From the NCBI GenBank assembly GCA_964439805.1, contig CAYTOI010000002.1, forward strand, positions 47,489 to 111,488: a stretch of 64,000 bases of DNA. Direction: 5' to 3'. The number at the start of each line of letters is the position of its first letter. The first letter of the stretch is position 1. This document shows, piece after piece, positions 1,712-17,000 of this stretch. A model generated the notes under the pieces. The model was given only the letters and a program-made list of their open reading frames with translations, did not search any database and was not told the origin of the DNA. This DNA is from an uncultured Pseudomonadales bacterium (GTDB taxonomy: Bacteria > Patescibacteriota > Microgenomatia > UBA1400 > MFAQ01). The position numbers were made by a program, and so were the translations under genes.

Positions 1712-1721
1712 ATTTTACACC

Positions 1722-2135
1722 CTACCTCACCGCATTATATTCAACCGCGCATTTCCAAGAACAACAAGCTTCTCCTGCTGGACATGGCTTGCCACATACT
1801 CTACATTTTCCAGGTACAAACTTTTTAACCATCTTTCTATTCGATTCTCTACACACTACACTGCAATATCTAGTTTTTGGATAACCCAAGAAATTTCCGC
1901 CACAAGCCTTACATGTTAACCGCGAAGCATGTTCTCCCAAGCTCTCCAACTTACAACTATTTGAGCAATAACTTTTTTGGTCTTCCTTTAATTTCTTACC
2001 GCAAAACTTACAAACCTTTTCTATTTCTTTTGGTTTGGGCGCTGGGGGATTTAAAAAATCATGTTCGCATTTTGGGCTACAGAATCGCCCCGAACCATAG
2101 AAAAAACTAGAACAATAAGTGCAACTGCCCCACAT
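1722..2135 (-). CDS. Cys-rich protein with four tandem zinc-ribbon-like repeats (137 aa)
   Basis: Repeated C-x2-C...C-x3/4-C units (CxxCxxK...YCSxxC) four times; no family assignment. Confidence 0.45.
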   Translation of the reverse strand: MWGSCTYCSSFFYGSGRFCSPKCEHDFLNPPAPKPKEIEKVCKFCGKKLKEDQKSYCSNSCKLESLGEHASRLTCKACGGNFLGYPKTRYCSVVCRESNRKMVKKFVPGKCRVCGKPCPAGEACCSWKCAVEYNAVR

Positions 2136-2320
2136 AGTTATTTATTGGACTGTTTCTTTATCGCTGGTCGGTTCTTACTGTATCCAAGATTAAAAGCTGG
2201 TTTGTCTTTATCTTGCAACATTGGAATAGGAGCTTTGTTTATTGAGCCTTGTGGTGGCAAGCTTCCCATTTGGTAACCTTGATTTTTTTTGGTTTCAAAA
2301 GTCATTTTGTATTTAAATAA

Positions 2321-2740
2321 TTAGTAAAGTAGGTCATCTTCGAGTTGACCTTGTAGTTTTTCTAAGCGTTCCTCTTTGGTTTGCCAACCACGAACTCTAC
2401 TTTTTTCCAAAGCTTCCTCTGTCTTTTTTTGAGCCTCAACTACTCCAGCCCAATACTTTCCTTTTTCGTCGAATGTCATTGCTGGCATTTCAGAAGCGGC
2501 ACTCACGCGCTCAATTAATTCTGAGTGTGCTTGGGTGTACCCTTTCACCTTCATTTCTTGAAGCGTTTTTTGTTGGTTCGCCTCAAGAACTGGCTTCCAG
2601 TTATCGAAAGCGGGTCCAATTCCAACTTCTAAATCCTTTTGAGCTTTGTCCATAGCAATGGCATTGTTTAAGCGCTCTATAAAAGAGGGGTTGGTAGATG
2701 ATGTTTTGTATGCGACATCGCGCATTATTGGTCTGTTCAT
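2321..2740 (-). CDS. hypothetical protein (139 aa)
   Basis: ORF in minus-strand operon; start codon directly abuts stop of the 47-aa ORF upstream (TAAATG). Confidence 0.45.
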   Translation of the reverse strand: MNRPIMRDVAYKTSSTNPSFIERLNNAIAMDKAQKDLEVGIGPAFDNWKPVLEANQQKTLQEMKVKGYTQAHSELIERVSAASEMPAMTFDEKGKYWAGVVEAQKKTEEALEKSRVRGWQTKEERLEKLQGQLEDDLLY

Positions 2741-2884
2741 TTATTTAACTTTCTTGTTGTTATTAACTCCACTCGCTATTCTTCTAGCTCTTACAGGGTT
2801 AAATCCGCGAGCTAATAATTCAGCAAGTTTCTTAATAAACTTTTCCCCTTTACCCTGGGGACCAGGAATGTCGTTGTATGCCAT
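2741..2884 (-). CDS. small basic protein (47 aa), unlisted ORF
   Basis: ATG at 2884 two nt after the stop of the 1049-aa gene; stop TAA (2741-2743) immediately followed by the ATG of the next gene. MAYNDIPGPQGKGEKFIKKLAELLARGFNPVRARRIASGVNNNKKVK. Fills an otherwise empty gap in a tightly coupled operon. Confidence 0.35.
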   Translation of the reverse strand: MAYNDIPGPQGKGEKFIKKLAELLARGFNPVRARRIASGVNNNKKVK

Positions 2885-2886
2885 AG

Positions 2887-5800
2887 TTATAATTTTGTTT
2901 TAAATCCTTTTAGAAAATCGCTGGAGTCGTATTCCTCAAGAAGGGACTTGGGAAGTTTGCCTACTTTGGGAGCAATTATTTTTCTAGGAGCGGAAGCCTT
3001 AATGGGTGAGACTGAGATTTTTCTTATTGCGGGTGACTTGGTTCCAGAACTAACCTTCTTGCCTTTGGTTGCTGATATGACCTTGTTAAATGCTTTCTGT
3101 TGGTTCTCAGTGATAAAACCATCATCTAGCCACTTAGCTGTAACTCCTGTGGTTAAAACCTCGGACTCAGCAAGTTTATAAACTGTCTGGGCGTATTGTT
3201 GTTCTGTCATTCCTGAAAGGAAGTTCACCAAGTAGTTTCCACGACTGCCACTATCGACAGGAAGTGTCTTCATCATTTTCAAAGAACTTTCTTCGTAATT
3301 TGGCAAGCCTCTTTTTTGTAGAACTAACTCAATTTTGTCTTTAGATAGTCCAGACTGAAAAATTTGCTTTATTTCGTTAACTTGGTCTGAGACCTGTGTT
3401 TGTTTGTCCAAAGTGTCCAACAGTAAATCACCTCTTGAGGTACTAGTTTTTTTAGTTGTACCAAAAACTTTCTCCTTTAATAAATCGAAGAGGTTAAAAC
3501 TTTGCTGGCCAGAAATATCTTTTTTCAATGACTCCGCTTGTGTTCTGCCTTGTGTTGCTGTGGCATACGCGTCTTCTGGTTTTATTCCAGCGGAAACAAG
3601 TGACCTGTAAATGTCGGATTGGTTAACACCTAATGGATTTGGTTTATCAAAATACTTTTTGGCATTTTCTCCAACTGTAGGACCAAACATAATATCTTGC
3701 ACAGCGTTACCGCTCGGATACTTAAGGTTTCCTGTGGTTGGTGAGTACACTCCGCCTTGGAGCTGGCTTTGTAGGCCATTGTAGGACTTCAATATTTGGC
3801 CTCCTGCGGGGATGTATGACATTCCGCCTTTGAGAATGTCTTTTGGTCCATTTTCGTTACCTGTTGCTGTTTCAATAATTCCCTTTGGAAGTTGTAGGGT
3901 TGGTGGCGTTGTAGATATTCCAGAATTAAAAGGAATCATATTGTCCCACTCCATTCCTACAGCTTTTCCAATTGTTGAGGTGAACAATAAGGAAGCACCT
4001 ATATAGCGAAGTAGACCAGCAAAATCTTTTTGTACTACTTTGTTTCCTAAAAACTCCACTTGTTTGACCCCGAAAGACTGGAATTGTAAAAGTGTTTTTG
4101 CAATATCGCTTTGTAAAGCTACAGGTGTGTCTATGGCTCCAAAATTAAACTGTGTCTTGCGGACAATAGACTTGGCGAATTCAATAGCTTTTTCCTCACT
4201 TATTCCTTTATCTATCGCTTGAGCTTTCGCGCCCCAATAAGCGGCGCCTCTATTTACTTTCTCAGCTAGGTTAAACATGTAAAACAATCCGTCGTCCAGT
4301 TTTTGTAAAGTTTTACGAGTGGCGTTTAGGGTTCTATCTTCAATAAAAGAATTTTTAAGAACTCCAACTTTTTCCAGCTCACTATCGGCACCCGTGACAA
4401 AGTTCTTTAAGTTCTTGGCGACCTGGGTATAACCTTTGAGAGTGTATTTTTCTCCTAGTTCTGCGTAGGTATTGGCTCCTTGAGACAGGTTACGAAGGGC
4501 ACTCGCTGGATTCAAGCCAATTAAACCCTTGTAGACGGCTTGTCTAGCTTTTTGGGTAATAGCAGTCGTTGGTCTTTGACCAAATTTATAGCCAATAGGA
4601 CTACTTTTTATCGTGTTGTCCAAGAGGTTATCAATATCGGTAGGACGCATTTGGACACGGTCAATAAAATTCTTTACATAATTAAACTGTGAAGTTTCTA
4701 GGTCGTCGGCTACAGTTTTAACTTTCTCAAGTGCAGGGTCCATCCAATACTTACGGACTGCTCTTTTTGTATAAGCGTCCAAAGCCTGCCAAGTGTCTTG
4801 TATGTAACCTTCAGCGTCACCGCGTTTTTGGAGGAAAGGGTCATAAGTAGAGCCCGCAACCTTGTCACGAATTAACTTCGCAAATTCTGGGTCAAACTCT
4901 TGCTCTACTTCACCTCTCTTAAAAATATGGGTAATGTAGTTTGAGAGTCTTTTGTCTTTTGGAAGTTTTAACTTCTCAGCCCAATCGGAAAGATAACCCT
5001 TGATTTCAGTAGCCACTTTCAACTCTGTCTTATCCAAAAACTTCTCAGGCGCTTTACCGTCTAGGTACTGGAAAATAAGTTTATTGCTTTCTGGTGAGAC
5101 TTGTTTACTCCACTCTGTAATTTTGCTAATTTCCTTTGGAAGTTCATCCAAATATGTATCGTGTGCCAAGCGAATACTTTGAAACTCTGGCTTAAGTCCC
5201 ATTTTGCTAAACACAGTTGAGGGAGTGCGAAGGTAGTCCAATAAATTTACTTTTGACTTAACACTAAGTCCTGCCTCATCCGCAAACTTTGTCGCCATGT
5301 TCTCAATTGTTTTACCTTCTATTTTCGCCCAAGCTTTACTTGCTGGCATTTCTATCATTTCTTTTTCTGAAAATTTACCAGCTAAATAACTCAATCTCTT
5401 TTGAGGGTCTAAGCTTCTAAATGCTTTTTGTAACTTTGTAAATGGTCCAGCTTCACCCTCCAATTTACTTGCAAGTACTTGGGCGCCTTTCTTGATTAAG
5501 GGACTGGCTTTTGCACCAATATCCTCAATAGGGGCAGTCATACCCATAATCATTCCCGACATTCTGTTAAAGTCTTCTTTTTGTAAACTCTTTATATCTT
5601 GAGGTGTAGCTTTGTCATTGTAAAAATTTTCTGTAGCGGTTCTTGTCTCATCTGAAGGGCTCAACATGGTTTTAAATAGACCGCCAAAAACTGGTGTTTT
5701 GAAAATTGTGTTTTTTTTAAAATTCTCAATTGCTGGTGAGGCTTTAACTGGTGCACCATATAAACCAACCTTTCTAGCTTTTTCGGAATCTGAAATATAT

Positions 5801-6036
5801 TGGTCAAATTGTTGCTGTAAACCTTGGAAGGCTTTTGACAAATCGACTTTAAAAGTAGGCTTTTGGACTGTGTCCAAGTTTTTGACTATTTCACGAGTTG
5901 ATAAATTGCTTGGTCTGTAAGTAGATAACTCAGCGTTTAACTGGGCGTTTCTGTATGGGTCAATTGTTTTTTGTGGAGTGGGAGCGGGGTTTACGAACTC
6001 TTTGACCTTCTGGACGATGGCCTTAAAAATATTCAT
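2887..6036 (-). CDS. large hypothetical protein (1049 aa), element-encoded; possible virion/structural or DNA-delivery protein
   Basis: Uninterrupted 3.15-kb ORF, mostly soluble, Lys-rich C-terminal tail; start overlaps stop of upstream 405-aa gene (TAATG). No catalytic motif recognised by eye. Confidence 0.6.
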   Translation of the reverse strand: MNIFKAIVQKVKEFVNPAPTPQKTIDPYRNAQLNAELSTYRPSNLSTREIVKNLDTVQKPTFKVDLSKAFQGLQQQFDQYISDSEKARKVGLYGAPVKASPAIENFKKNTIFKTPVFGGLFKTMLSPSDETRTATENFYNDKATPQDIKSLQKEDFNRMSGMIMGMTAPIEDIGAKASPLIKKGAQVLASKLEGEAGPFTKLQKAFRSLDPQKRLSYLAGKFSEKEMIEMPASKAWAKIEGKTIENMATKFADEAGLSVKSKVNLLDYLRTPSTVFSKMGLKPEFQSIRLAHDTYLDELPKEISKITEWSKQVSPESNKLIFQYLDGKAPEKFLDKTELKVATEIKGYLSDWAEKLKLPKDKRLSNYITHIFKRGEVEQEFDPEFAKLIRDKVAGSTYDPFLQKRGDAEGYIQDTWQALDAYTKRAVRKYWMDPALEKVKTVADDLETSQFNYVKNFIDRVQMRPTDIDNLLDNTIKSSPIGYKFGQRPTTAITQKARQAVYKGLIGLNPASALRNLSQGANTYAELGEKYTLKGYTQVAKNLKNFVTGADSELEKVGVLKNSFIEDRTLNATRKTLQKLDDGLFYMFNLAEKVNRGAAYWGAKAQAIDKGISEEKAIEFAKSIVRKTQFNFGAIDTPVALQSDIAKTLLQFQSFGVKQVEFLGNKVVQKDFAGLLRYIGASLLFTSTIGKAVGMEWDNMIPFNSGISTTPPTLQLPKGIIETATGNENGPKDILKGGMSYIPAGGQILKSYNGLQSQLQGGVYSPTTGNLKYPSGNAVQDIMFGPTVGENAKKYFDKPNPLGVNQSDIYRSLVSAGIKPEDAYATATQGRTQAESLKKDISGQQSFNLFDLLKEKVFGTTKKTSTSRGDLLLDTLDKQTQVSDQVNEIKQIFQSGLSKDKIELVLQKRGLPNYEESSLKMMKTLPVDSGSRGNYLVNFLSGMTEQQYAQTVYKLAESEVLTTGVTAKWLDDGFITENQQKAFNKVISATKGKKVSSGTKSPAIRKISVSPIKASAPRKIIAPKVGKLPKSLLEEYDSSDFLKGFKTKL

Positions 6037-7253
6037 TATGCGAATATGTCAAATAATTCGGTGAAGGTGTTTCCTTGTAACTCACTGTCACTTAGTAGAG
6101 TGCTCTTGCTGTCATAAGTTGTTCTTGTTGGAACTTGTGAGCTTTGGGAAGGTGCTTGGTTGTCGTATCCTGAAAACTGGACGTTGTTTATTTTTGGAAC
6201 TGAGAGAACAGTTTCAGCATTTTTTGCTAGATTGTTTTGTAGTTGAGTCTTTACTTGCTCGCGCCACATGTTTAGTTCTAGTTCTGCGGCGTATTTTTGA
6301 TTTGCTAAAGCTTGACTGTCGGCAAGCTGTTGTCTAAGAACGTCTACTTTGGCCGCTTGTCTTGCTGACTCAGTTTCAAACTTCCTTGCTTGTATTTCTG
6401 CTCTTTTTTGGTCGTATAAAGAATTTATTTTTTTAAGTTCTGTGGCTTGTGCCTTTTGTAGCTCAAATTTTTTATCGTTTACAAATTTGTTTGCATTATC
6501 GAAGTATTGGAACGCTTGAGTTATTCCCTCCATCATTGTTTTACGAAGTCCACCAGTACCGCGAAGCGTCTCTTGTCCAAGTAAATCACTAACCGCGGCT
6601 CCTGTTGAGCTTCCACCTCCGAAGCGGTTCATTGCTCCTTGTTTTAAGGTGTTGTACTCGCGAATGGCGTTACTGTAAGCTGAAGAGTATTGGTCTTGTA
6701 GAGTTTGCTGTGCGTTGTCTCTATTTTGGGCGTACTGTCCCAAACTTCTATCAAGTTCGTTTTGCGCTGATATTGAAGCGTTGTTTGCTTCCTCAATTGC
6801 AATAGGGCGTTGCTTTTCTAGTTCACCAAGATAGTTATCGTATGTTTGATTTAAGGGAGCATAAATGGAATCAATTTCACCGTTTAAGTTATTACCAGAT
6901 GAATTGCCAAGTTCTGCTTCGTATCTAGCTCTTTGGCTTGGGTCGTTAAGAATATTGTTGATGGTGTTCTGGTCATTAAAACCAAACTTACTTCTTAACA
7001 AATCAGCAGTTAACCCTCCCGAAGATTGTTGGGGTTGTGGTGTTGGAGTTGAGCTATAAGTTTTTTGTACAGAATTAACAAGAGGTTTAATTGTTGTATT
7101 GTTTGGTTGAGTTATGGGAAGAGTGCTGTAGTCTGGTGGATTGTTAGTCACTGTTCTAGCGAATTCCGCTTGTCGAACCGTCGAAGAATTCATAATGGAA
7201 TCCCAAGTCTTTTGGAAAATGTTTCTTGTATCGGGCAGGATTGAATCTGGCAT
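6036..7253 (-). CDS. Q/N-rich coiled-coil protein (405 aa); scaffold/tape-measure-like
   Basis: Long predicted coiled-coil segments, low-complexity S/T/Q/N N-terminus; first gene of the operon. Confidence 0.55.
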   Translation of the reverse strand: MPDSILPDTRNIFQKTWDSIMNSSTVRQAEFARTVTNNPPDYSTLPITQPNNTTIKPLVNSVQKTYSSTPTPQPQQSSGGLTADLLRSKFGFNDQNTINNILNDPSQRARYEAELGNSSGNNLNGEIDSIYAPLNQTYDNYLGELEKQRPIAIEEANNASISAQNELDRSLGQYAQNRDNAQQTLQDQYSSAYSNAIREYNTLKQGAMNRFGGGSSTGAAVSDLLGQETLRGTGGLRKTMMEGITQAFQYFDNANKFVNDKKFELQKAQATELKKINSLYDQKRAEIQARKFETESARQAAKVDVLRQQLADSQALANQKYAAELELNMWREQVKTQLQNNLAKNAETVLSVPKINNVQFSGYDNQAPSQSSQVPTRTTYDSKSTLLSDSELQGNTFTELFDIFA

Positions 7254-7292
7254 GTATGTTTTTTGTTTTTTTTAAATAATTAGTTAGTTGCA

Positions 7293-7308
7293 TGACCTCC
7301 GAAGAGGT
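7293..7308. promoter_or_regulatory. perfect palindrome GACCTCCGAAGAGGTC ~40 nt upstream of the operon start (candidate operator)
   Basis: 6-bp arms, 4-bp spacer, read directly; location between operon start (7253) and a hairpin at 7426-7448. Confidence 0.25.
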
Positions 7309-7421
7309 CGAAAATGTTTGAGCACTGCGCATAATCGAGGTGAAAAGTAAGAAAATCCTTGATTTACCGTTTAGAAGCTCGGTCAACTCCTTTCCAAAGT
7401 TGACCCAACCTCCAAATACAC

Positions 7422-7450
7422 AAAAAGACCCACTGTTTAAATGGGTCTTT
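7422..7450 (-). terminator. hairpin + U-run oriented for the minus strand (terminator/insulator or leader hairpin)
   Basis: AGACCCA-loop-TGGGTCT preceded on plus strand by AAAAA (U-run on minus transcript). Confidence 0.3.
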
Positions 7451-7610
7451 GAGTCGAAGAACAGTTGCAACTGTTTCTCAAACAATATCCTTATATCAAC
7501 AAACTACAGGATAAAAGTCAATAGGTAAATAGTCATAAATAAATTTAAATGACATCCTAGAGCATTGTAGTGGGTCAAAAATGAGTGATAATTTGGTGAA
7601 GGGGTAAAAT

Positions 7611-8162
7611 ATGGGTATGGAAGAAAACAAAACAATTCTTCACTTGTCAAAAACAGAAGTTGTAAGAAGAGAAATTGAAACAGCTATCGCAATGTTTTTT
7701 ACAGGTGGAGAACCTGTAGCTATACATTTAATTGCTCAATCTGCAAACGATATATTGACTAAGTTAGGAGGTAAGTCTTTTTATTCAGATATATCAAGTT
7801 ACATAAAGCCAGAACATCAAAAATGGTTTACAGATATAATCAGGAAACCAAACAATTTTTTTAAACACGTGTTGAGAGACGAAAACGAAGTATTAACCTT
7901 CAACCCCGAAGCAACAACCTTTATACTTTGGGACTGCGTTGAGATGTATAAAAAGTCTACTGGCGAAGTTACTGGAAAAATGACGGCATACCTCCTTTAC
8001 TTCTGGGCAAACAATCCTCAAATTATTGTAGAAAAAGAGCACCGAGACGAGTTTCAAAAGGCCATGGCTAATGGCCCAATATCAAAAGCAGAATTTCTTA
8101 AATTTGCCGATAACATGGAAAACTCGAGAATTACAGGAAGACTTATGCCCACAGGTATATAA
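7611..8162 (+). CDS. hypothetical protein (183 aa)
   Basis: ORF with GAAGGGG RBS 7 nt upstream. Confidence 0.5.
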   Translation: MGMEENKTILHLSKTEVVRREIETAIAMFFTGGEPVAIHLIAQSANDILTKLGGKSFYSDISSYIKPEHQKWFTDIIRKPNNFFKHVLRDENEVLTFNPEATTFILWDCVEMYKKSTGEVTGKMTAYLLYFWANNPQIIVEKEHRDEFQKAMANGPISKAEFLKFADNMENSRITGRLMPTGI

Positions 8163-8173
8163 TCCACCTCATA

Positions 8174-8632
8174 ATGAAGAAAATACTGCTTTCCTTGGTT
8201 TTTCTGCTCGTAAGTGCTTCGCCTGTATTCGCTCATCCTGGACGTACGGACTCAAGCGGTTGCCATGTTTGCAGAACAAACTGTGATAAATGGGGCGTTT
8301 CTTGGAATGTAAAACACTGTCATGGTGGCTCAGTTGCTCCAGTAGTAACAGCAAAACCTACTGTTAAGGCGACACCACTACCAACAAGAATCTACACACC
8401 AGCTCCTACAAAAATAGCTACTCCAACACTAACTAAATTGGTAACCCCTACACCTACACCAACCGCTACACCCACTCCTACAGTTGAGCCCACTGTAACA
8501 ACTACACTGACTCCAACAATTGAGGTTACAGCTATACCTACAAACACTCCAACACCCACCGTCTTGGGCACTAAGACGACTCAAGGGAGAGGCTTTTGGG
8601 GATGGTTATCAAGAATGTTTGGTGGTAAATGA
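8174..8632 (+). CDS. secreted Cys/His-rich protein with Thr/Pro-rich linker (152 aa)
   Basis: Signal peptide MKKILLSLVFLLVSASPVFA; HPGRTDSSGCHVCRTNCDKWGVSWNVKHCHGG module; (TPTPTPTATPTPT) linker. Confidence 0.55.
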   Translation: MKKILLSLVFLLVSASPVFAHPGRTDSSGCHVCRTNCDKWGVSWNVKHCHGGSVAPVVTAKPTVKATPLPTRIYTPAPTKIATPTLTKLVTPTPTPTATPTPTVEPTVTTTLTPTIEVTAIPTNTPTPTVLGTKTTQGRGFWGWLSRMFGGK

Positions 8633-8961
8633 AAAACATAATAGTTGTTTTGGGTATGTTAATGGTTGGGTTTGGATTTTATTGGACTCAGGTGAGACCA
8701 TCGCAAATAAAACATGACTGTTCTTGGAAAAAAGTTGTTGTTCCATACCAACCAGCAAAACCACCAATGACAGATGAAGAGTTGGTTAAACAAGGAATAA
8801 CCATAAACTGTACAGATGAAGGCAGTTCAATGGAAGACTTATTTTGTAAAAGTAGGTTAGAAATGTTTAGAAAAGGTTCTCCAGAAATACCTGCTTCTGA
8901 AAATTGGAAAAAGACCAACGACGTCGAGTATAAATTTTGTTTGAGAGATAAAGGGTTATAA
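8629..8961 (+). CDS. membrane-anchored small protein (110 aa)
   Basis: ATGA overlap with previous gene; N-terminal TM anchor, 4 Cys in ectodomain. Confidence 0.45.
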   Translation: MKNIIVVLGMLMVGFGFYWTQVRPSQIKHDCSWKKVVVPYQPAKPPMTDEELVKQGITINCTDEGSSMEDLFCKSRLEMFRKGSPEIPASENWKKTNDVEYKFCLRDKGL

Positions 8962-9059
8962 AAAACACACCCATTACACATTGATGAAAATATAAGTTTG
9001 TGCGAGAATAGTTCTCTCGACCTTTCGGTTGGGGTACCCTTAATTTAAGGAGATTCAAA

Positions 9060-9278
9060 ATGGCAGACGGCGATGAAGATGAGGCAGACAACACGCAAGT
9101 AACTTGGAACACGAACACAGAACAGGGCACAGGAAATGGGACTAACCAGACCACGACCTATGAACGCTCACTACCACAGGAAAACAGCAAGAACACTCAA
9201 ACGGGTGACCACAAGTTCTATGACCCCCGCAACCAGCGTTCTGGTGTAGCAGGCGGAAGCCGCAACGACGAAAATTAA
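9060..9278 (+). CDS. small acidic, low-complexity protein (72 aa)
   Basis: Strong SD (AAGGAG, 8 nt spacing), followed by intrinsic terminator; D/E/N/T/Q-rich (MADGDEDEADNTQVTWNTNTEQGTGNGTNQTTT...); locally GC-rich relative to surroundings. Confidence 0.5.
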   Translation: MADGDEDEADNTQVTWNTNTEQGTGNGTNQTTTYERSLPQENSKNTQTGDHKFYDPRNQRSGVAGGSRNDEN

Positions 9279-9286
9279 TTTGGTTT

Positions 9287-9313
9287 GGTGGGGTTTTATA
9301 CCCCACCTTTTTT
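9287..9313 (+). terminator. rho-independent terminator
   Basis: GGTGGGG-ttttata-CCCCACC followed by TTTTTT. Confidence 0.65.
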
Positions 9314-9547
9314 GTGGTCTATAATCTAGCTATGTCAGAAAAAATAGAAATTGATAAAACACTCACGCCAGAGAATGCAGTGGATAGAGGTCTAATGTGG
9401 GTCAAGGATGTAATTGTAGACAACGAAGCACCAGACGAAGCTATGCAGGATATTTTGGAGCTAATAAAAAATGGTGACGTTATTGGGCTACCGGCTGGAG
9501 AAAATGTAGAGAATAATTTATGTGGACTTTATAGAAAAATTTCCTAG
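9314..9547 (+). CDS. hypothetical protein (77 aa; alternative start 9332)
   Basis: ORF; TATAAT at 9321-9326 suggests short/leaderless transcript. Confidence 0.3.
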   Translation: MVYNLAMSEKIEIDKTLTPENAVDRGLMWVKDVIVDNEAPDEAMQDILELIKNGDVIGLPAGENVENNLCGLYRKIS

Positions 9548-9957
9548 AAAAATTTATCAACTTTTTATATTCCGCGTTTTTTGTGTATGGGGGTGTTGGG
9601 TATGGGTAAATGTAAATTGTAAAAAAATATTGATAGACCGCTTTTATTCCGTACTAGATATTATCCTCTTTACTGCCTTTTCCCCCAGCGAGGTATCGGT
9701 TATAAATAGACCCCTATATATGGGGATGTAAGGAATTATGTATATGTATGATTTATATCCTTGATATGTTGTATCTGTGGCTAGGTGGGGGGGTGGGGAG
9801 GAGATTGGGGAATGGGGATATTTATAATAAATAAACTACTCTCGCGCATATCGTACAGGCACGACCAACCATAAATATTATATTTTTATATATTTCCGCA
9901 CAAAACCCGAAAGGTAATACAATCAATATAAAGTGTATTCACAAACAAAACACGAAC
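9548..9957. other. 410-bp non-coding region with G-tract clusters (G4 motif 9787-9817) and AT-rich repeats; candidate origin/packaging/regulatory region of the element
   Basis: GGGGGGG-t-GGGG-aggagatt-GGGG-aat-GGGG at 9787-9817; second G-rich patch 9589-9606; TATGTATATGTATGATTTATATCC AT-rich block; lies between convergent gene blocks. Confidence 0.3.
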
Positions 9958-10197
9958 CTAACGACCAACATTTAAAATAGTCGTGATTAAACAACCACGA
10001 GCCAGCGAATACTTTGAGCCTTTTGTTTTTCCAGTCTTACGAACAATATTTCTATTTATTAAATCTTTAATATCTCGAAGCAATGTATCGTCCGAAACAC
10101 TTTGACCAAAGCTATTTAGCTTTAAATTACCACCTTCTAGCAATGTCTCAACAATTAGGCATTGCCTATCTGTTAACGATGTTAGTTTAATCTCCAT
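9958..10197 (-). CDS. winged-helix DNA-binding protein (79 aa; DeoR/Fic-C-terminal-like HTH)
   Basis: DRQCLIVETLLEGG...VSDDTLLRDIKDLINRNIVRKTG resembles DeoR-type HTH. Confidence 0.4.
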   Translation of the reverse strand: MEIKLTSLTDRQCLIVETLLEGGNLKLNSFGQSVSDDTLLRDIKDLINRNIVRKTGKTKGSKYSLARGCLITTILNVGR

Positions 10198-10457
10198 TTA
10201 CTTCTATTCCTTTCTTGTTCTTGTTTCTCGAGTCTGGCAAGTGACTCTGTTCTCTTTAAGACCTCAAGTCCTTCATTGAGGGCACTAACCAAGTTATTTT
10301 CACTCATCTGTGTGTGGTTTGGGTCAATACCTTTGACAGACAAAATTAAAGTATCTATACCGTGCAATATTGGCTCAACTGAGCGGGCACCAATACGGCG
10401 AACTTGAGTAAGCGATTGTTCTACCTCGTTTAATTTATTCTGTAGGGTTTGTGTCAT
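10182..10457 (-). CDS. hypothetical protein (91 aa)
   Basis: ORF, coiled-coil-prone; overlaps neighbours by a few codons. Confidence 0.4.
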   Translation of the reverse strand: MTQTLQNKLNEVEQSLTQVRRIGARSVEPILHGIDTLILSVKGIDPNHTQMSENNLVSALNEGLEVLKRTESLARLEKQEQERNRSKWRLN

Positions 10458-10629
10458 AGCCTGCTAATTTAGAAGTAAATTTTGAGTATCGTTCTGTAAT
10501 ATCTTGTAAATAGTCACTTGTTCTCATCAAGCCTCGGGTAAGCCACCATGTGAACATTGCAAACAAAAAACTTGTCTTTAATAGAAACATAGCTGTTTTG
10601 TAGGAAGGCGCGTCGATGGTAACTATCAT
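10435..10629 (-). CDS. small membrane protein (64 aa)
   Basis: ORF with one TM segment. Confidence 0.3.
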   Translation of the reverse strand: MIVTIDAPSYKTAMFLLKTSFLFAMFTWWLTRGLMRTSDYLQDITERYSKFTSKLAGYDTNPTE

Positions 10630-10805
10630 TTGCCAATTTTGTTAGTTAAAGTTAGTTGAATTTTGTCCAACTCCAAAATTATTTTGTCTGCTGAAAAATT
10701 GACCTCACCAATTGCCTTGGTTAACATTAGTAACTCGTTAAAGGTATCTATAATCTTTTTCTCTTTTTTGGAGGGCACGGCTTTTTGTTTAATTTCTTCT
10801 ATCAT
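10626..10805 (-). CDS. hypothetical protein (59 aa; ORF track extends it to 10910)
   Basis: Internal ATG at 10805 lies 4 nt (AAAA) after the stop of the upstream gene; the 5' extension to 10910 overlaps the upstream gene by 100 nt and is probably not translated. Confidence 0.3.
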   Translation of the reverse strand: MIEEIKQKAVPSKKEKKIIDTFNELLMLTKAIGEVNFSADKIILELDKIQLTLTNKIGK

Positions 10806-10809
10806 TTTT

Positions 10810-11241
10810 TTAAAATATTTCTGTTGGTCTTGGTGTTCTACCACCTGGTTTATTATTTGGGTTATTTGGTGACCAAAATGGTCCTGTTCTTGTTGTTCTA
10901 CTATTAGCAATCTTCACAGCGTCACCAGGCAGGATTTTGGTACTCTTAGTCATTCCAAGACGGCGCTCGACATCTGGGCGGGCTTTCTCGCACTTATCGC
11001 ATAAGGGCACACTCTTGGAACGAGTATCTTTAATGAATGCAGGGCCACCACACCAAAGACAAACTTTGACACTTATTCCGCGGGTCTTGGCGTACTCTTT
11101 AGCTTTCTCAAATTCGTATTGTAGATTTTCGGACAGGTGCGAGTGACCTACTTTGGTCTCTTCAATTTCTTGTCTCTTCTCATCTGAAAATTGAGATTGG
11201 GCTTCGTTGTGTAAATATTGGTCTAGTTTATTCATAAACAA
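10810..11241 (-). CDS. zinc-ribbon protein (143 aa)
   Basis: CLWCGG...CDKC zinc ribbon; low-complexity C-terminal tail. Confidence 0.45.
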   Translation of the reverse strand: MFMNKLDQYLHNEAQSQFSDEKRQEIEETKVGHSHLSENLQYEFEKAKEYAKTRGISVKVCLWCGGPAFIKDTRSKSVPLCDKCEKARPDVERRLGMTKSTKILPGDAVKIANSRTTRTGPFWSPNNPNNKPGGRTPRPTEIF

Positions 11242-11245
11242 TCGC

Positions 11246-11452
11246 TTATTTGAGGTTTTTAATAAAAGAAATAATTTCGGAGCCTAAAAAACTATATGAC
11301 CCTTGACCATCAAAACCACCCTTACCAATACGACTGGGTTTTAACTTTCCTTCTCTAACAAATCTTTCAGCCCTAACTCTACCAATCCCAAGAGTTTTCT
11401 GGGTCTCTTTGTAGTTATAAATTGCGTCTCTTTTTATTGTTGTCTTCTCCAT
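11246..11452 (-). CDS. excisionase/HTH_17-like DNA-binding protein (68 aa)
   Basis: YNYKETQKTLGIGRVRAERFVREGKLKPSRIGKG matches the Xis/MerR-type helix-turn-helix pattern (...iGr.rr.....). Confidence 0.5.
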   Translation of the reverse strand: MEKTTIKRDAIYNYKETQKTLGIGRVRAERFVREGKLKPSRIGKGGFDGQGSYSFLGSEIISFIKNLK

Positions 11453-11544
11453 GTTTTAAAGATGTATCGCTAAAACAAATAAATCAATCATCAAGTGTTC
11501 GCCATTTCCAAACAAATGACACAAGATTGAAGCTAAATTCATGC

Positions 11545-11573
11545 TTGACAGAATGCCTATAGTTTGATTATAT
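11545..11573 (+). promoter_or_regulatory. sigma70-like promoter TTGACA-17-TTATAT
   Basis: Consensus -35 at 11545-11550, 17-nt spacer, -10 TTATAT at 11568-11573; in divergent intergenic region. Confidence 0.45.
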
Positions 11574-11751
11574 GAGTACAGAGTTGCAGTAGAGAAAAAA
11601 TCTCAGGCGACCACAAACAATCAATAAATACATGACTCGTATTTTTTGGTGTAAGTGGCCGCTTTTTTGTTGGTTGGGATAAGGAAAAAACTTTATCCGA
11701 GCTAATAAGCTCGAAAGACAAAATTCTTGATATGGATTGTGTCGCAGAAGC

Positions 11752-11783
11752 GTAGGTGGTGGTCTGCCCTGGCTACCACCTAC
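11752..11783. promoter_or_regulatory. 9-bp perfect inverted repeat GTAGGTGGT-N14-ACCACCTAC in leader of HTH/rep operon
   Basis: Read directly; not followed by a U-run, so more likely operator/attenuator than terminator. Confidence 0.3.
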
Positions 11784-11815
11784 AAACAAAAAATTATTTA
11801 TTAAATCGAAAAATT

Positions 11816-12082
11816 ATGACAAATCTCGATATTTATTTAAGTTACTCCTTGGGAGCGAACGATATTCGTTTCCTTGAGTTACTACAAACTTTACCAAACT
11901 GTGAGTGGAGGGACAAGCAGACGGCATTAGCCATTGACCTACGCCTTCACAAAACCACAGTTAACGAAATGATTAAACGACTCAAGAAAAAGAAGTTGGT
12001 TCGAGTTAGAAAAACAAAAAAAAGTGTGCCCCTAGTTATCAAGCTTGGTTTGGAGCTAAGAAAGGAGAAAACAAATGGCTAA
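11816..12082 (+). CDS. small HTH transcriptional regulator (88 aa; MarR/wHTH-like)
   Basis: ...KQTALAIDLRLHKTTVNEMIKRLKKKKLV; ATG at 11816 preferred over GTG 11756, which lies in the hairpin. Confidence 0.45.
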   Translation: MTNLDIYLSYSLGANDIRFLELLQTLPNCEWRDKQTALAIDLRLHKTTVNEMIKRLKKKKLVRVRKTKKSVPLVIKLGLELRKEKTNG

Positions 12083-13016
12083 CAGAAAAAAGGTAATAGA
12101 TAACGATTCTGCTTGTGCTCTTGGTTTAACCGAGTCTGTAGTTTTTAATCAAATTAACTATTGGTCAAAAAAATCAAAACACACAGTCAACGGAGTATCT
12201 GGTTGGTTCTACAAAACTTTTGACAAATTCCAAAAAGAGGACTTCCCTTTTTTGTCAGTACGATGGATAAAAACTACCATAAAAAAACTTAACGAGCTGA
12301 AACTAATTGAGGTAGGAGAATTTAATACTTGGAGAGCTGACCGCACAAAGTGGTACAAAGTTGCCGACGACGCTGAGGCCAAAATCAAAGCTATTTTAGA
12401 AAAAAAGCATAGTGAACAAAATGCACTATGCTCTGACACAAAGTGCACTATGCCAAAGTGCACAAAGTGCACGAGCAATAACCATAGAGTAACTAAACCA
12501 AAGAGTACAGACATAAATTTAGAATTACATTCTAATGGCGGTGCCATTTTAAAGGACTCAGTAAGTAATAAAGTTAGACTATCTATTGAGACAAATAGTT
12601 ACAACAAGACCGAGCCAATAAGCGCTTACTCCAATAATCGCCTAGCAGAAATCACCACCACCCTTCTAGCTAAACGCCACCTGACCAAGTTAACTTTCGA
12701 GCTAGACAAACCTTTACCGCCAAATGAAAAAGGTGAGTATCCAGCAGAGGCGTATCAACTTATCCGCGATTATGGCTGTTCTTACTCACCAGACAGTTTT
12801 CTGTATAACGAAGGCGACGATAAAAATTGGGGATACTTTGGCCGAAGAATAAAAGAAGCATTTCAAGAAGGAGCGACCGTTGAAGGACTGTGCGGCGCAA
12901 TTTACAGAATTGCAGAAGGTGAGGACATAAACAACCTTGGCTCTTTCAGAGATGAGCCCATTCAGGTTGATAGTGTTTATTCCGAATGGTCTGCTTGGAC
13001 AAATAAAGTTGAATAA
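12075..13016 (+). CDS. replication-initiator-like protein (313 aa) containing internal iterons
   Basis: Good SD (AAAGGAG); N-terminal wHTH-like segment; internal tandem repeats AAAGTGCAC x3; position after regulator gene. Confidence 0.4.
   Translation: MANRKKVIDNDSACALGLTESVVFNQINYWSKKSKHTVNGVSGWFYKTFDKFQKEDFPFLSVRWIKTTIKKLNELKLIEVGEFNTWRADRTKWYKVADDAEAKIKAILEKKHSEQNALCSDTKCTMPKCTKCTSNNHRVTKPKSTDINLELHSNGGAILKDSVSNKVRLSIETNSYNKTEPISAYSNNRLAEITTTLLAKRHLTKLTFELDKPLPPNEKGEYPAEAYQLIRDYGCSYSPDSFLYNEGDDKNWGYFGRRIKEAFQEGATVEGLCGAIYRIAEGEDINNLGSFRDEPIQVDSVYSEWSAWTNKVE
12422..12472. repeat. iteron-like direct repeats (AAAGTGCAC x3 at 12440, 12455, 12464; TGCACTATGC x2) with palindromic GTGCAC cores
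   Basis: Seen directly within the rep-like ORF. Confidence 0.5.
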
Positions 13017-13018
13017 AT

Positions 13019-13363
13019 ATGAAATTACAAAAAATTATTAAAACCATGGAAAAAACCTGTAACCGCTGTCACCAGCAAAAACCACAAAATGAATTTAGTA
13101 ACAAATACCGCTGTAGAGAATGCAGTAGAGAACTTTTTAGAGACTACTACCGCAGACATGCAGAAGAACTAAATGAGAAGGGAAGAATTTGGCGCATGAA
13201 TAACCAAGAAAAAGTAAAAGCAAACGCTAAGGAATATTTTAAAAATCATAAACAAGAAATTAATTCTTATTTAAAAAAGAGAAGAGACCAAAAGAAACTT
13301 AACAACCCCATAGCAAATGCATTTGTAAGACCTCAGGATGCCTCTAAATCGTTTGCAAAATAA
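13019..13363 (+). CDS. basic zinc-finger protein (114 aa)
   Basis: CNRCHQQK...RCRECSRE two CxxC pairs; K/R-rich remainder. Confidence 0.4.
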   Translation: MKLQKIIKTMEKTCNRCHQQKPQNEFSNKYRCRECSRELFRDYYRRHAEELNEKGRIWRMNNQEKVKANAKEYFKNHKQEINSYLKKRRDQKKLNNPIANAFVRPQDASKSFAK

Positions 13364-13407
13364 CTTTACGACTACTATTACAAAAGACCTATAAAAAAAC
13401 AAATATT

Positions 13408-13782
13408 ATGAAAAATAAAACAACAAAAAAAGAAAACTACTTCTTAGGAGTTTTCGGACAAGAATTAATAAAAAACTTGTTTCCATTAACAACACCAGGC
13501 AAAAGAAGTTTTGACCTTCGGGTATTAACTGAGGAAAAACCAAAAGTCGGAACTCGTATAGAAGTAAAAACGAGAAAGCCAAGAAGAGGAGGAACTTTCC
13601 AAATAAACTTTACAAGACATGAAAGGACTCACAGCGACACAACGGCAATTTTACTGCTGGCTGATGATTTTGAGATATTAAGGCTTTACTGGATACCTAC
13701 CGCATTTTTACCTCGAGATAAGGGGTTTTTATATTTTGGGAAAAAAGTAAACCCAAAGTATGAGAGTTTTAGGCTTATTTAG
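13408..13782 (+). CDS. hypothetical protein, possible PD-(D/E)xK nuclease fold (124 aa)
   Basis: FDLRVL...RIEVKTRK resembles D...(E)xK core; weak. Confidence 0.3.
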   Translation: MKNKTTKKENYFLGVFGQELIKNLFPLTTPGKRSFDLRVLTEEKPKVGTRIEVKTRKPRRGGTFQINFTRHERTHSDTTAILLLADDFEILRLYWIPTAFLPRDKGFLYFGKKVNPKYESFRLI

Positions 13783-14098
13783 ATTTCTCTGGAAACAGAA
13801 AATCGTACAACTTAGTACCGCCAAAAAATAGTACAAGCAAACTAAAACCAATACCAAAGCCGTACCATATTATGCTGGAAACTTGAGCAAGGTCCTTATA
13901 GTACCATCCGCACACCCCTGGTGAATTTACTCCACTAAACCTTGATTGACATTCTAATGTATTTAAATACGCATTGTGAGCTATCTTGTCGTAATTCAAT
14001 AAGTAAAGTGAGGCCACTCCGATAGACAAAACAGACACAAGAACAACTAAAAAACGAACCACGATATATAGACGCTTTTTATCAAGTTTTCTACTCAT
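13775..14098 (-). CDS. membrane protein (107 aa, 2 TM)
   Basis: Two hydrophobic helices flanking Cys-containing loop. Confidence 0.4.
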   Translation of the reverse strand: MSRKLDKKRLYIVVRFLVVLVSVLSIGVASLYLLNYDKIAHNAYLNTLECQSRFSGVNSPGVCGWYYKDLAQVSSIIWYGFGIGFSLLVLFFGGTKLYDFLFPEKSK

Positions 14099-14165
14099 AA
14101 TTAAATTATACTCTTGAGCAAATTATATCCTTTATGAGCAAGAGATGAGCTAAAATATTTTCCAA

Positions 14166-14339
14166 ATGCAACTCTCACAACAGGCCATAGAGGAGTACAA
14201 AGATATTATCCTGAAGGATTATGGAATAAAGTTGACTGACTTAGAGGCAACAGAGCAAGCAACAAAACTTATAAACCTGTTTAAGGTTTTGGCTAAGCCA
14301 GTTCCAGAAAGTAAAACCGAACCTACAAAAAATCTATAG
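14166..14339 (+). CDS. possible small protein (57 aa), unlisted
   Basis: MQLSQQAIEEYKDIILKDYGIKLTDLEATEQATKLINLFKVLAKPVPESKTEPTKNL; no clear SD; low confidence. Confidence 0.2.
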   Translation: MQLSQQAIEEYKDIILKDYGIKLTDLEATEQATKLINLFKVLAKPVPESKTEPTKNL

Positions 14340-14378
14340 GTTTTGTCGAAGTACTAAAATTATAGTAGCATATATTTA

Positions 14379-14621
14379 TTGATATATCAACAAATAATTG
14401 ACAATAAAATATATAAAGTGTATATTGACGGCATGGACATATTTAATACACCAGAAGGAAAAAAGTTTTTAGAAGCATACAAGGTAACCCGCCAAACTAT
14501 TCCCAACGAAAAAAGGTGGAAACTAGCTGAAGAACGACTAAATGGCTTACCGCTATCCGTAAAAAAAGAAGAGAAAGCTCAAGGCATACCCCTTAGTGTG
14601 GTGACTTTAAACAAAAAATAA
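14379..14621 (+). CDS. hypothetical protein (80 aa), upstream of integrase (possible directionality factor)
   Basis: ORF only. Confidence 0.3.
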   Translation: MIYQQIIDNKIYKVYIDGMDIFNTPEGKKFLEAYKVTRQTIPNEKRWKLAEERLNGLPLSVKKEEKAQGIPLSVVTLNKK

Positions 14622-14662
14622 TAACCCAAGGACATCATCTTTGAACTATAATAAATTTAAAG

Positions 14663-16333
14663 ATGAAAAAAGCAGTAGCATACCTTCGTGTTAGTACTGA
14701 TAGCCAAAGCACTAGTTCTCAAAGGGACAAAATACAAGAATATGCCGTAGCAAATGGCTATGAAGTTGAGAAATGGTTTGAGGACTCTGCTCTTTCTGGA
14801 ACTCTAGACGATAGACCTCAACTCTTAGCTCTAAAAGAATGGGTACCAAACAATGAGGGCAAAAGTATTTTAATGGTTGGCCTCGATAGACTTGCGAGAG
14901 ACTTTGCAATATTTATCGACATGTCAACGCTTTTCAATAATTACAATGTAACCCCTGTTTACATAAATTGTCCAAGTAGTGGTGACGCAGTCATGGACAC
15001 TTTTCTCCAAAATATTCTAGCCTCTTTTGCTTCACTAGAAAAAGAACTCATTTCTCAAAGATTTAATAGAGGAAAACGATTTAAATTAAAAAATGGAATT
15101 ATTGCCGCTGGTGGTCCGCCATTGTTTGGGTATAAGTATCGGGTCGACTATTATCCTAGTGGTAAAAAAGATAAGTATTACGAAATAAACGAGGAGGAGG
15201 CGGAGACTGTTCGCCTCATGTTTAGAATGCTGTTATCTGAAAAGTACAAAGTTCAAGGAATTGGTAGAGAGTTAACTAGATTAAAAATCAGAACCCGCTC
15301 AGGGACTACCAGATGGGCGCCAAGCAGTACTCGAAGTCTGCTTTGTAACACAACATATATGGGTGATTACAGATACGGCAAAACTAAAATGCAAGGAGTT
15401 GGAAAAAATAGACACGAAGTCCCTCGAGCCATTGAAGAACAAATGGTTATTCCTGTACCTCCAATAATTACAAGAGAAGAATTTGCAAGAGCACAAGAAA
15501 TACTTGAGAGATTGGCGAGAGGTGCGGGTGGTCGCAAGCGACACAATGACACAGTTTTACTTTCAGGACTAATGATTTGCGGAAACTGTAACTATAGGTA
15601 TTCAGCAGGTGGACGAAGTACAGGGAAAAGGCTACATAGTTATTACAGGTGTAATTCTATAAACCGCTATAACGCAGACGGTGAACACCACTCCTGTGGT
15701 AACGCTACTTTGAAAACGGCCGAGGCGGATAGTGCAGTTTGGAACGCACTCGCGGATATACTTATAAACCCCGATAAGGTTAAAAACACCACAGACTCAA
15801 AAAGAAGAAAAGAGGAAATAGAGGGAATGTATGACGATATGATAAGTTTGGTTAAAAGACAGGAAAAAATTGCCGATGAGGAAAAAAGAATAATTGATGG
15901 TTATGCCAAGGGTTTGTTTGGAGATAGTCAAGTTAGGGAATACAGACAAGACTTAGCTGAGAAAAATAAAGAAATTGGCGATAAGTTACACGAAATAAAT
16001 TTACAAGTAAGCAACGCGTTGTGGGAGGATGGGGAGATAGATTTTGGCAAACCAAAAACTAGGAAGCAGGTCGACAAGTACACTTTTGATAAAAAGAGGG
16101 AGCTTATAAAAACCTACATTACAGAAGTTAGAGTTTTACCAACCGAACCAACCAAGTTAGAGATAGTTTTTAGGTTACCAATTGAGCCTAACAAGTCAGT
16201 TGTAACAATCAACGGCTCCCCGCGGGAAGTAGTACCTAGTTACAAAAATAATGGAAAAGTTGTAACAACTAATAACTCCCTCCAAATCCAGGCAAGATCA
16301 CTACCTTCTCCTTCTCGGGAGCAGGGCTTGTAA
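14663..16333 (+). CDS. large serine recombinase (phage-type integrase, 556 aa)
   Basis: N-terminal resolvase catalytic domain (AVAYLRVSTDSQ, ...GLDRLARD), recombinase domain, zinc-ribbon (CGNCNYRYSAGG...YYRCNS), coiled-coil region. Confidence 0.9.
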   Translation: MKKAVAYLRVSTDSQSTSSQRDKIQEYAVANGYEVEKWFEDSALSGTLDDRPQLLALKEWVPNNEGKSILMVGLDRLARDFAIFIDMSTLFNNYNVTPVYINCPSSGDAVMDTFLQNILASFASLEKELISQRFNRGKRFKLKNGIIAAGGPPLFGYKYRVDYYPSGKKDKYYEINEEEAETVRLMFRMLLSEKYKVQGIGRELTRLKIRTRSGTTRWAPSSTRSLLCNTTYMGDYRYGKTKMQGVGKNRHEVPRAIEEQMVIPVPPIITREEFARAQEILERLARGAGGRKRHNDTVLLSGLMICGNCNYRYSAGGRSTGKRLHSYYRCNSINRYNADGEHHSCGNATLKTAEADSAVWNALADILINPDKVKNTTDSKRRKEEIEGMYDDMISLVKRQEKIADEEKRIIDGYAKGLFGDSQVREYRQDLAEKNKEIGDKLHEINLQVSNALWEDGEIDFGKPKTRKQVDKYTFDKKRELIKTYITEVRVLPTEPTKLEIVFRLPIEPNKSVVTINGSPREVVPSYKNNGKVVTTNNSLQIQARSLPSPSREQGL

Positions 16334-17000
16334 TACTTAAAAAATCAACCAATATTGATGCTCTAGAAGTTACTGTAATTGTCTCCTGGGGGCTACCAAA
16401 TAATGCATACTTTAGATTTCTACTAGCTATATAGCTTTTTATGCTATTTGAATCAATTGATACATCATATAATCCATTTTTATAATTAACTTTAAAATCG
16501 TGATAAATATTGAGATTAAAAGTGCTAATTTTTCTAAATTGATTTTGGTTGCACCCAGGTTCGGTTGTTGGGCATAAACTAGTCCAAAGATTTGCCGTAG
16601 TATTACTTTCAGGCCATATTAGAAAAATAATATCGCTAGGCAGAATATCTCTCTTGTCTAGATTTGGAAAAATTTTGTCAGATAGTATTATTCCAGATCC
16701 AAAATTTAATGGACCTTCTATTTTAAATTTTGTTAAGAGTTTATATTCAAGAAGCGGAAATATATCAGGCTTGGAAACTAGATATGGAAAAAAATTACCC
16801 GATGGGGTACTCAACTTAATAGATCCATCTATTATAGAAACGCTTCCGTAGTTTTGATAAACCGTCCATTTAGATTCATCTACCGTATCAAAATTATCGA
16901 TATAGATTTTATCTGCCGAAAAAATATGGCTGGGGAAGATAATTAAAAAAACAAACAGCAAGCAAGAACAAGAAAAAAATACTTTGATAATGTGTCTCAT
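16269..17000 (-). CDS. secreted N-terminal portion of the split LCAT-like lipase gene (243 aa: signal peptide + beta-rich domain, ends ...KVVILPGFGGSY*)
   Basis: Signal peptide; C-terminus PGFGGS = LCAT oxyanion motif immediately followed by a stop; overlaps integrase 3' end. Confidence 0.5.
   Translation of the reverse strand: MRHIIKVFFSCSCLLFVFLIIFPSHIFSADKIYIDNFDTVDESKWTVYQNYGSVSIIDGSIKLSTPSGNFFPYLVSKPDIFPLLEYKLLTKFKIEGPLNFGSGIILSDKIFPNLDKRDILPSDIIFLIWPESNTTANLWTSLCPTTEPGCNQNQFRKISTFNLNIYHDFKVNYKNGLYDVSIDSNSIKSYIASRNLKYALFGSPQETITVTSRASILVDFLSITSPAPEKEKVVILPGFGGSY

Follow-up and report, generated by a model that had tools for sequence, protein, structure and literature searches.

In an integrated element carried by the window (the whole 64-kb stretch of DNA that was analyzed), the 410-nt spacer downstream of a small-gene operon is conserved among related elements, shows a strand-consistent C/G skew, has little RNA structure and no canonical intrinsic terminator, and contains strand-specific T-run motifs. 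A conserved, C-rich, and unfolded stretch located after the small-gene operon fits a factor-dependent stop better than it fits an origin or a folded RNA. Since C-rich unstructured RNA is an established loading substrate for Rho (rut sites, e.g., lambda tR1), we tentatively propose that the spacer is a Rho-dependent-type terminator, i.e., a termination or control region at the end of the small-gene ("early") operon, and we assign this reading a probability of about 0.35.

The initial annotation placed the spacer inside a mobile element, and this was borne out. The integrated element is ~15.6 kb in length (window ~712-16,276), carries a gene for a large serine recombinase at its end (14663-16333), and splits a host lipase-like gene (GHSMGG motif) at the codons for GFGGSW. 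One half of that gene, ending in ...ILPGFGGSY followed by a stop codon, lies at 16269-17000 (- strand), and the other resumes from ~720 downwards as ...LLGGSWNVEA.... The junctions at ~704-712 and ~16276-16283 have inverted arms, GTTGTAACAAT and GTTGTTACAAC, around a G-rich core, as would be expected for the attP site of a serine integrase. The same host lipase-like gene was also found beside a related element in another locus (L009).

Within the element, a replication module encodes a 108-aa winged-helix protein and a 313-aa DnaD-like/lambda O-like initiator (PHROG E = 3e-20), and a divergent switch region lies at about 11453-11755. The small-gene operon consists of six genes that run on the - strand from 11452 down to 9958, and a transcript of its last gene, which encodes a 79-aa protein, would enter the C-rich tract described below. 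Five cargo genes (7611-9547) and a late operon follow, the latter on the - strand and encoding a 405-aa protein, a 1049-aa protein, and small proteins. Flanked by a + strand gene that ends at 9547 and a - strand gene that ends at 9958, the spacer is the largest non-coding region of an otherwise compact element. Because homologues of the 1049-aa protein bear the names Daviesbacteria, Gottesmanbacteria, and Microgenomates, a Microgenomates-type CPR host is suggested. The gene for this protein (2887-6036, - strand) has 298 homologues at E <= 0.001, many of them on contigs of 14-16 kb and some with polyvalent-protein domains, and the central domain of the protein (residues about 257-813) is also found in 53 IMG/VR contigs of 30-45 kb, beside structural-looking genes. 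The 1049-aa protein had no Pfam or PDB match, and PDB sequence searches with the 313-aa, 405-aa, and 1049-aa proteins returned no matches. The elements appear to represent an undescribed group of small (~15-kb) integrative elements of CPR bacteria, for which no described family provides a match.

Relatives of the element were gathered by means of homologues of the 405-aa protein and the contigs that encode them. Four further independent elements (L004/L005, L006, L007, and L008) keep the gene order of the window, that is, recombinase, initiator module, small-gene operon, a gene-free spacer of 390-600 nt, variable cargo (SNase, AbiJ, and others), and late operon. The spacers of the window and of these four elements are homologous, with pairwise nhmmer E values of 5e-13 to 3e-3, and the neighboring 405-aa proteins of elements with a homologous spacer are 35-80% identical. 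A sixth element, L071, has a spacer that matches that of L008 at E = 1.6e-29, and its 91-aa operon protein is 74% identical to that of the window. No spacer homologue was detected with nhmmer in the 53 IMG/VR viral loci that share the 1049-aa central domain or in L068-L070, no relative was found with blastn in phage GenBank records, and a 21-mer of the G tract had no match in IMG/VR. Searches of viral and genome collections with the 405-aa protein gave nothing useful for spacer relatives, and the matching contigs from a metagenome scan all stop short of the spacer. Comparison of 9548-9957 with the homologous spacers revealed no conserved open reading frame. A 20-aa frame within a listed 29-aa frame (ATG at 9812 behind GGAGGAG) was rejected as its reading frame is not conserved, and the small frames of the spacer in general were set aside as their similarity tracks nucleotide blocks and their substitutions show no synonymous bias.

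The most consistent feature of the six spacers is their base composition. The most extreme 80-nt C-G skew of the locus lies within the spacer in all five full loci (C 27-41, G 2-7), and its direction is constant, the C-rich strand being always the sense strand of the operon (the - strand of the window). L071, which was obtained afterwards as a test of this pattern, contains 40 C and 8 G in the 80 nt where its skew is greatest, together with a C8 run. A C-rich, G-depleted tract of 80-190 nt is thus present in six of six elements; in the window it is 126 nt long, contains 41 C and 8 G, and includes the 80-nt segment with the strongest C-G skew anywhere in the window. YC dimers occur in the tracts at 25-33 per 100 nt (25 in the window) versus a background of about 10, and C7-C9 homopolymer runs are present in five of the six elements. 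When all 235 intergenic regions of 150 nt or longer in the loci examined were compared, the six spacers were the most skewed non-coding ones; the rival G-rich or skewed peaks that were inspected (in L030, L032, and L035 and at 55.7 kb in the window) proved to be coding, corresponding to Gly-rich proteins, small genes, and an MGMT-like gene. No general bias of C over G on the sense strand was found in co-directional intergenic regions of related phages and hosts, and therefore the spacer skew is not a generic terminator style of the lineage, which counts against the Rho-type reading.

The G-tracts from which this analysis began are the complement of this composition. Both the motif GGGGGGGTGGGGAGGAGATTGGGGAATGGGG, with tracts of G7, G4, G4, and G4 and loops of 1, 8, and 3 nt, and the second G-rich patch of the initial annotation were confirmed at their positions on the + strand, as was the judgment that such G-tract density is non-random. 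The G4Hunter maximum of the window, at a G+C content of 38.7%, is 2.6 at 9787 (25-nt scoring window), and this exceeds the largest value, 2.48, among 400 order-1 and order-3 Markov simulations, whose maxima averaged 1.75. Two of the five scoring windows in the 64 kb with an absolute G4Hunter value of at least 1.5 fall within the 410-nt spacer. The longest G run of the window is the G7 of this motif, and G or C runs of at least 7 nt are rare (two in 64 kb). The AT-rich repeats that had been reported alongside the G-tracts are represented by TATGTATATGTATGA at 9738-9752, which is present but trivial, with no repeat scored by Tandem Repeats Finder.

The strongest G4Hunter peak of the locus falls within the spacer in all five full loci; the quadruplex itself is less constant. 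The window motif has the canonical features (four G-tracts of at least 3 nt, short loops, and a high G4Hunter score) and is missed by a strict G4 regular expression (loops <= 7) solely through its 8-nt loop; ViennaRNA with G4 energies predicts a four-layer quadruplex in the minimum free energy (MFE) fold of the + strand RNA. Among the window, L004, L006, L007, and L008, however, a quadruplex of at least three layers on the G-rich strand is predicted in the window and L008 only. L004 and L007 give a two-layer quadruplex on that strand, and L006 has none there but a predicted three-layer quadruplex on the other strand, so that neither the strength nor the strand of the quadruplex potential is conserved. 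Since this potential is not uniformly kept and the skew is present in all six elements, the conserved property, as judged from these comparisons, is the C-rich, G-depleted tract of 80-190 nt and not a uniform quadruplex. The quadruplex potential of the + strand G-tracts would then be a by-product of the complementary C-rich tract, and it is doubtful that a G-quadruplex is itself a selected feature of the spacer. The host encodes a PIF1-like helicase at 29922-31220 (Pfam E = 2.8e-30); PIF1-family members unwind G-quadruplexes in other organisms. The possibility that no related element keeps the G-tracts is excluded, as the G/C feature recurs, in kind, in the homologous spacers of five other related elements. 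In this respect, the initial proposal that the G-tracts mark a functional non-coding region is upheld; of its candidate functions, a replication origin is unlikely and a structured RNA is unsupported.

Table. Coordinates of features in and around the spacer (window positions unless a locus is given)
Feature	Position	Strand	Remarks
Whole conserved non-coding spacer	9548-9957		Between last gene of small-gene operon and variable cargo; nhmmer homology
79-aa winged-helix-like protein gene, last of operon	9958-10197	-	Synteny in L004 and L007
Conserved block GGTTGGTCGTGCCTGTACG	9852-9870	-	Between stop codon and C-rich tract; alignments A1 and A4
C-rich, G-poor, poorly structured tract; proposed Rho-loading (rut-like) region	9700-9825	- (operon sense)	Composition, folding, skew
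G-tract cluster G7-T-G4-AGGAGATT-G4-AAT-G4	9787-9817	+	Reads CCCCATTCCCCAATCTCCTCCCCACCCCCCC on - strand
Best-conserved block AAAAAAATATTGATAGACCG...GTACTAGATATTATCC	9621-9672	Read on +	Alignments A8 and A9
T-run-YYAR motif, third, degenerate copy TTTTTTTACAAT	9616-9629	-	
Second G patch GGGGGTGTTGGGTATGGG	9589-9606	+	Reads CCCATACCCAACACCCCC on - strand; distal spacer; G4Hunter 1.64
T-run-YYAR motif, two copies TTTTTCTAGGAAA, TTTTTCTATAAAG	9527-9555	-	Distal end; proposed pause/release sites
Iteron cluster CAAAGTGCAC, 4-5 copies	12343-12472	+	Inside initiator gene 12075-13016; outside spacer
Iteron clusters of relatives	L004 4099-4201; L007 3428-3518; L008 4336-4449; L006 4669-4723		Inside initiator gene
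C run/G run pairs	L071 2313-2320, 2386-2393; L006 7816-7822, 7951-7957; L008 7328-7340, 7391-7404	Same strand	

A structured regulatory RNA, which had been among the candidate functions, was not supported by RNA folding. Neither strand of the spacer folded better than shuffled sequences (z = +0.72 and +0.86), the consensus fold of the conserved distal blocks reached only -1.1 and -1.5 kcal/mol on the two strands, and no convincing covariation was found in the spacer. Rfam gave no match in the window spacer at E <= 10 and none in its homologues at the gathering score. The C-rich strand is particularly poor in structure. The C-strand tract of the window has an MFE of -12.9 kcal/mol with its first ~50 nt unpaired, the cores of L007 (126 and 146 nt) are essentially unpaired at 0 and -1 kcal/mol, and the others range from -10 to -17.5 kcal/mol; the G-strand counterparts range from -11 to -29 kcal/mol.

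A terminator scan of the window, L004, L006, L007, and L008 did not reveal a terminator-like site immediately downstream of the operon's stop codon. The sole site in the window spacer is a weak one of 5 pairs further in, at 9727-9710, and the sites in L007 are confined to the distal end of the spacer. Canonical terminators do occur elsewhere in the element and host (9287-9313 and about 55601). The 3' half of the strong terminator that follows the 72-aa gene (TTTTATACCCCACCTTTTTTGTG, 9294-9316) recurs with 83% identity at 9563-9585, where it follows the 71-aa gene and has no 5' stem arm; this suggests that the 71-aa gene was inserted or duplicated along with a terminator end. The subgroup of L006, L008, and L071 differs in having, immediately ahead of the C tract, a hairpin that shows one compensatory change. 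In L071 this hairpin is AU-rich and passes the terminator scan, and transcripts of the subgroup may already end there. In the same three elements, a C run is followed on the same strand by a G run of similar length 60-130 nt further on, which counts against the Rho-type reading; the two could form a long-range helix or cruciform. RNAalifold predicted the small hairpin together with such a C-run/G-run helix at -28 kcal/mol, with an unfavorable covariation term and from three sequences only; pairing in that form was not seen in the window, L004, or L007.

On the Rho-type reading, the transcript of the operon would be untranslated after the stop codon of the last gene and, ~100-200 nt downstream, would turn C-rich, G-poor, and essentially unfolded for 80-190 nt (from 9825 down to 9700 in the window). 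The Rho helicase would load on this C-rich unfolded RNA and catch RNA polymerase at U-rich T-run-YYAR sites 100-250 nt further on (about 9630 to 9527), and the stop would keep transcription out of the variable cargo genes and of the late operon that follows them. This reading supposes that transcription of the operon extends into the tract, that Rho is present in the host, and that termination takes place there. The C-rich, G-poor composition of rut sites, over about 70-80 nt or more, was found in six of six elements (C 27-41 and G 2-8 in 80-nt windows), as was their low degree of structure (MFE of 0 to -17.5 kcal/mol per 126-146 nt of C-strand core). The candidate release sites are likewise strand specific. 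T4-7-YYAR occurs at 10.75 per kb in the six spacers and at 1.07 per kb elsewhere, a ~10-fold enrichment, and is almost entirely restricted to the sense strand, with three antisense matches, all in L004. Considered as a genome-wide motif, TTTTCCAGAA showed no overall enrichment; the looser T-run-YYAR motif alone was enriched, and locally. No rho gene was found in the 1.1 Mb of DNA examined, and a literature search on Rho in CPR lineages and on Microgenomates prophages returned nothing relevant.

Our confidence in the Rho-type terminator was held at this level because conservation, of six or more sequence blocks as well as of the homopolymer runs, goes beyond what a rut site needs, and because the C tract is preceded by a hairpin in one subgroup. 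For a simple rut site, base composition suffices and no particular sequence is required. Alignments show at least six conserved blocks across the spacer, including a related core, CTCC(T)CCCCAC, that can be read from the sequences of the elements. Given these blocks and the C7-C9 runs in five of six elements, something more specific than rut composition appears to be under selection in the spacer. Direct sequence comparison showed that the core GTGGGGAGGAG(AT) of the window G-tract cluster is common to L007. The GGTTGGTCGTGCCTGTACG block resembles a GTGCGTAAT block of L006, L008, and L071 (alignments A1 and A4 and the L071 sequence), and the best-conserved block has a weak sigma-70-like layout, xxGACC-N17-xATATx, directed towards the G-rich strand and below the threshold of the scanner. 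A scan of the window, L004, L006, L007, L008, and L071 gave no sigma-70 promoter in the spacer above chance or threshold. A DnaA-box-like TAGCCACAG, a Chi-like GCTAGGTGG, and a boxA-like CCTCTTTAC sequence, noted by eye alone, were dropped, not being consistently conserved.

Several blocks conserved beyond the needs of a terminator could instead reflect a regulatory RNA that acts through unpaired sequence, which we regard as unlikely. Such an RNA might be the C-rich 3' untranslated RNA itself, pairing through an anti-Shine-Dalgarno-like core, CUCCUCCCC, with G-rich ribosome-binding sites or leaders, or else a G-rich antisense RNA that starts at the promoter-like block (9630-9665, +) and extends backwards to overlap the operon at its 3' end, by analogy to lambda OOP RNA and cII. 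The core GTGGGGAGGAG(AT)/(AT)CTCCTCCCCAC is near-identical in the window and L007 and has close variants in L004, L006, and L008, and the promoter-like block aligns, with an A-tract ahead of it, in four to five of five elements. However, that block scores below the scanner threshold in every element, no intrinsic terminator delimits a discrete small RNA, no Rfam family matches, and the search for a conserved target yielded none; base pairing between the C tract and a G-rich stretch of the late leader was considered and dropped, that stretch being absent from L006 and L007. It is also conceivable, but improbable, that the spacer is a control module specific to this family, in which the C-rich RNA with its anti-SD-like sequence would serve as a decoy or pairing partner, or its G-rich complement as an R-loop or quadruplex switch, and would control the switch from expression of the small-gene operon to that of the cargo and late genes; slippage at the homopolymer C/G runs might make such a module variable. 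If the sequence acted as DNA, the G/C tracts (as a quadruplex, i-motif, or protein-binding array) might constitute a pac/cos site, as the initial annotation had considered, a recombination hotspot by the cargo, or a roadblock to replication or transcription. The retention of rare G/C runs of 7-9 nt in five of six elements, the stable quadruplex predicted in the window, and the location of the spacer at the border of a region in which gene content differs between elements would agree with such a site. So would the ends of certain contigs: two Logan contigs of SRR12487046 break off at 9865-9888, and another contig, L072, stops 22 nt past its C8 run. These breaks occur in low-coverage assemblies (the contig name of L071 gives cov 3.4) and adjoin a 26-nt pure-AT stretch; they are probably due to low coverage and less likely to a real DNA end or heterogeneity. 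The two SRR12487046 contigs overlap by 24 nt only, and their break is 48-70 nt from the G run. Moreover, quadruplex strength and strand are not conserved, a quadruplex requires neither a skew as long as 80-190 nt nor such strong depletion of the complementary base, no gene for a terminase or capsid was recognized in the element, and the 53 related viral contigs contain no similar sequence, all of which makes a DNA-level site unlikely in our estimation.

An origin of replication had also been suggested for this region and now appears very improbable. It might, for example, be primed by an R-loop from a promoter with G clusters and AT-rich DNA behind it, in the manner of ColE1 or mitochondrial CSBII. 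The spacer is the largest non-coding region of the element, its G clusters are flanked by AT-rich stretches, and the weak promoter-like block lies upstream on the G-rich strand, as such an origin would have it. Nonetheless, in five of five elements, iteron clusters with dyad cores lie inside the gene for the O/DnaD-like initiator, each with a sequence of its own, and none were found in the spacer. In addition, conservation of the spacer contrasts with an identity of only 16-20% among the initiators, so that spacer and initiator do not co-vary. Iterons inside the initiator gene are the classical lambda-type arrangement, and the element probably has a lambda-type origin at its iterons, which in the window encode a KCT-repeat linker of the initiator. 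Finally, the composition could be a relic or a product of drift, with the blocks serving only neighboring promoters or terminators. Identity inside the C-rich tract is low, and its alignment contains many indels, as expected if the spacer had no specific function; yet the same extreme, strand-consistent skew is found in six elements whose neighboring 405-aa proteins fall to 35% identity, homology of the spacers is still detected by nhmmer, and the element is otherwise compact. We therefore consider the absence of a specific function quite unlikely.

The region downstream of the spacer is the variable part of the element. The cargo slot (window 7611-9547; L004 7422-9626; L007 6432-8412; L008 7579-9701) holds genes that are wholly different between related elements and vary in orientation. 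Five small genes, one of which encodes a secreted Thr/Pro-rich protein, occupy it in the window; an SNase-domain nuclease is encoded there in L004 and L008, and AbiJ in L007. The interval from the spacer to the late promoter looks like a slot for the exchange of cargo or defense genes that is bounded by conserved non-coding DNA. The late operon is preceded by a conserved TTGACA-type promoter of the 405-aa gene (TTGACT at 7521-7516, - strand; region 7254-7521) and a structured leader of ~250 nt, which contains an intrinsic-terminator-like hairpin with a T-run (7447-7422) and two more hairpins and is kept in nine loci (alignment A6); the 405-aa gene has no Shine-Dalgarno sequence. By analogy to lambda pR'-tR', the late promoter looks as if it were under antitermination control.

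To our knowledge, almost nothing is known about gene regulation in CPR/Patescibacteria and their mobile elements. If the spacer is a Rho-type terminator, it would provide a computational handle on factor-dependent termination in these bacteria and would show where the early and late regions meet in an undescribed family of small integrative elements. What stands out as a quadruplex motif can also be the complement of a C-rich RNA signal, and comparison among relatives separates the two readings.

Several known systems resemble the spacer in part. Like phage cos/pac sites, it is non-coding and conserved and has GC-rich elements within a mobile element that is AT-rich, but it has no recognized terminase gene nearby or in the element and no similarity to related viral contigs. 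With R-loop/G-quadruplex primed origins (ColE1 RNA II, mitochondrial CSBII, and T4 oriF) it shares G clusters on one strand beside AT-rich DNA and a possible upstream promoter on the G-rich strand; in contrast to them, lambda-type iterons lie within the initiator gene of the element, spacer and initiator do not co-vary, and the promoter is weak and putative. The C-rich small RNAs of the RsaE/RoxS type in Firmicutes, which pair with Shine-Dalgarno sequences, likewise have unpaired C-rich motifs, comparable to the anti-SD-like CUCCUCCCC of the spacer. Each of these, however, is a separate transcript of about 100 nt that has its own promoter and terminator and folds in a conserved manner, whereas the spacer has no defined transcript, fold, or Rfam match. 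Compared with Rho-dependent terminators such as lambda tR1 (between cro and cII) and E. coli trp t', the spacer has several additional conserved flanking blocks, its Rho dependence is predicted from sequence, and its C/G ratios (4-8 over the cores and up to 13 in 80-nt windows) and C7-C9 runs appear more extreme than is typical of characterized rut sites. The resemblance lies in a C-rich, G-poor, unstructured, untranslated RNA of ~80 nt or more past a stop codon, in U-rich candidate pause/release sites further downstream, and in a location where an early or regulatory operon of a temperate element ends; a strong hairpin-plus-U element is absent directly after the stop codon in five of the six elements, the hairpin of L071 passing the terminator scan.
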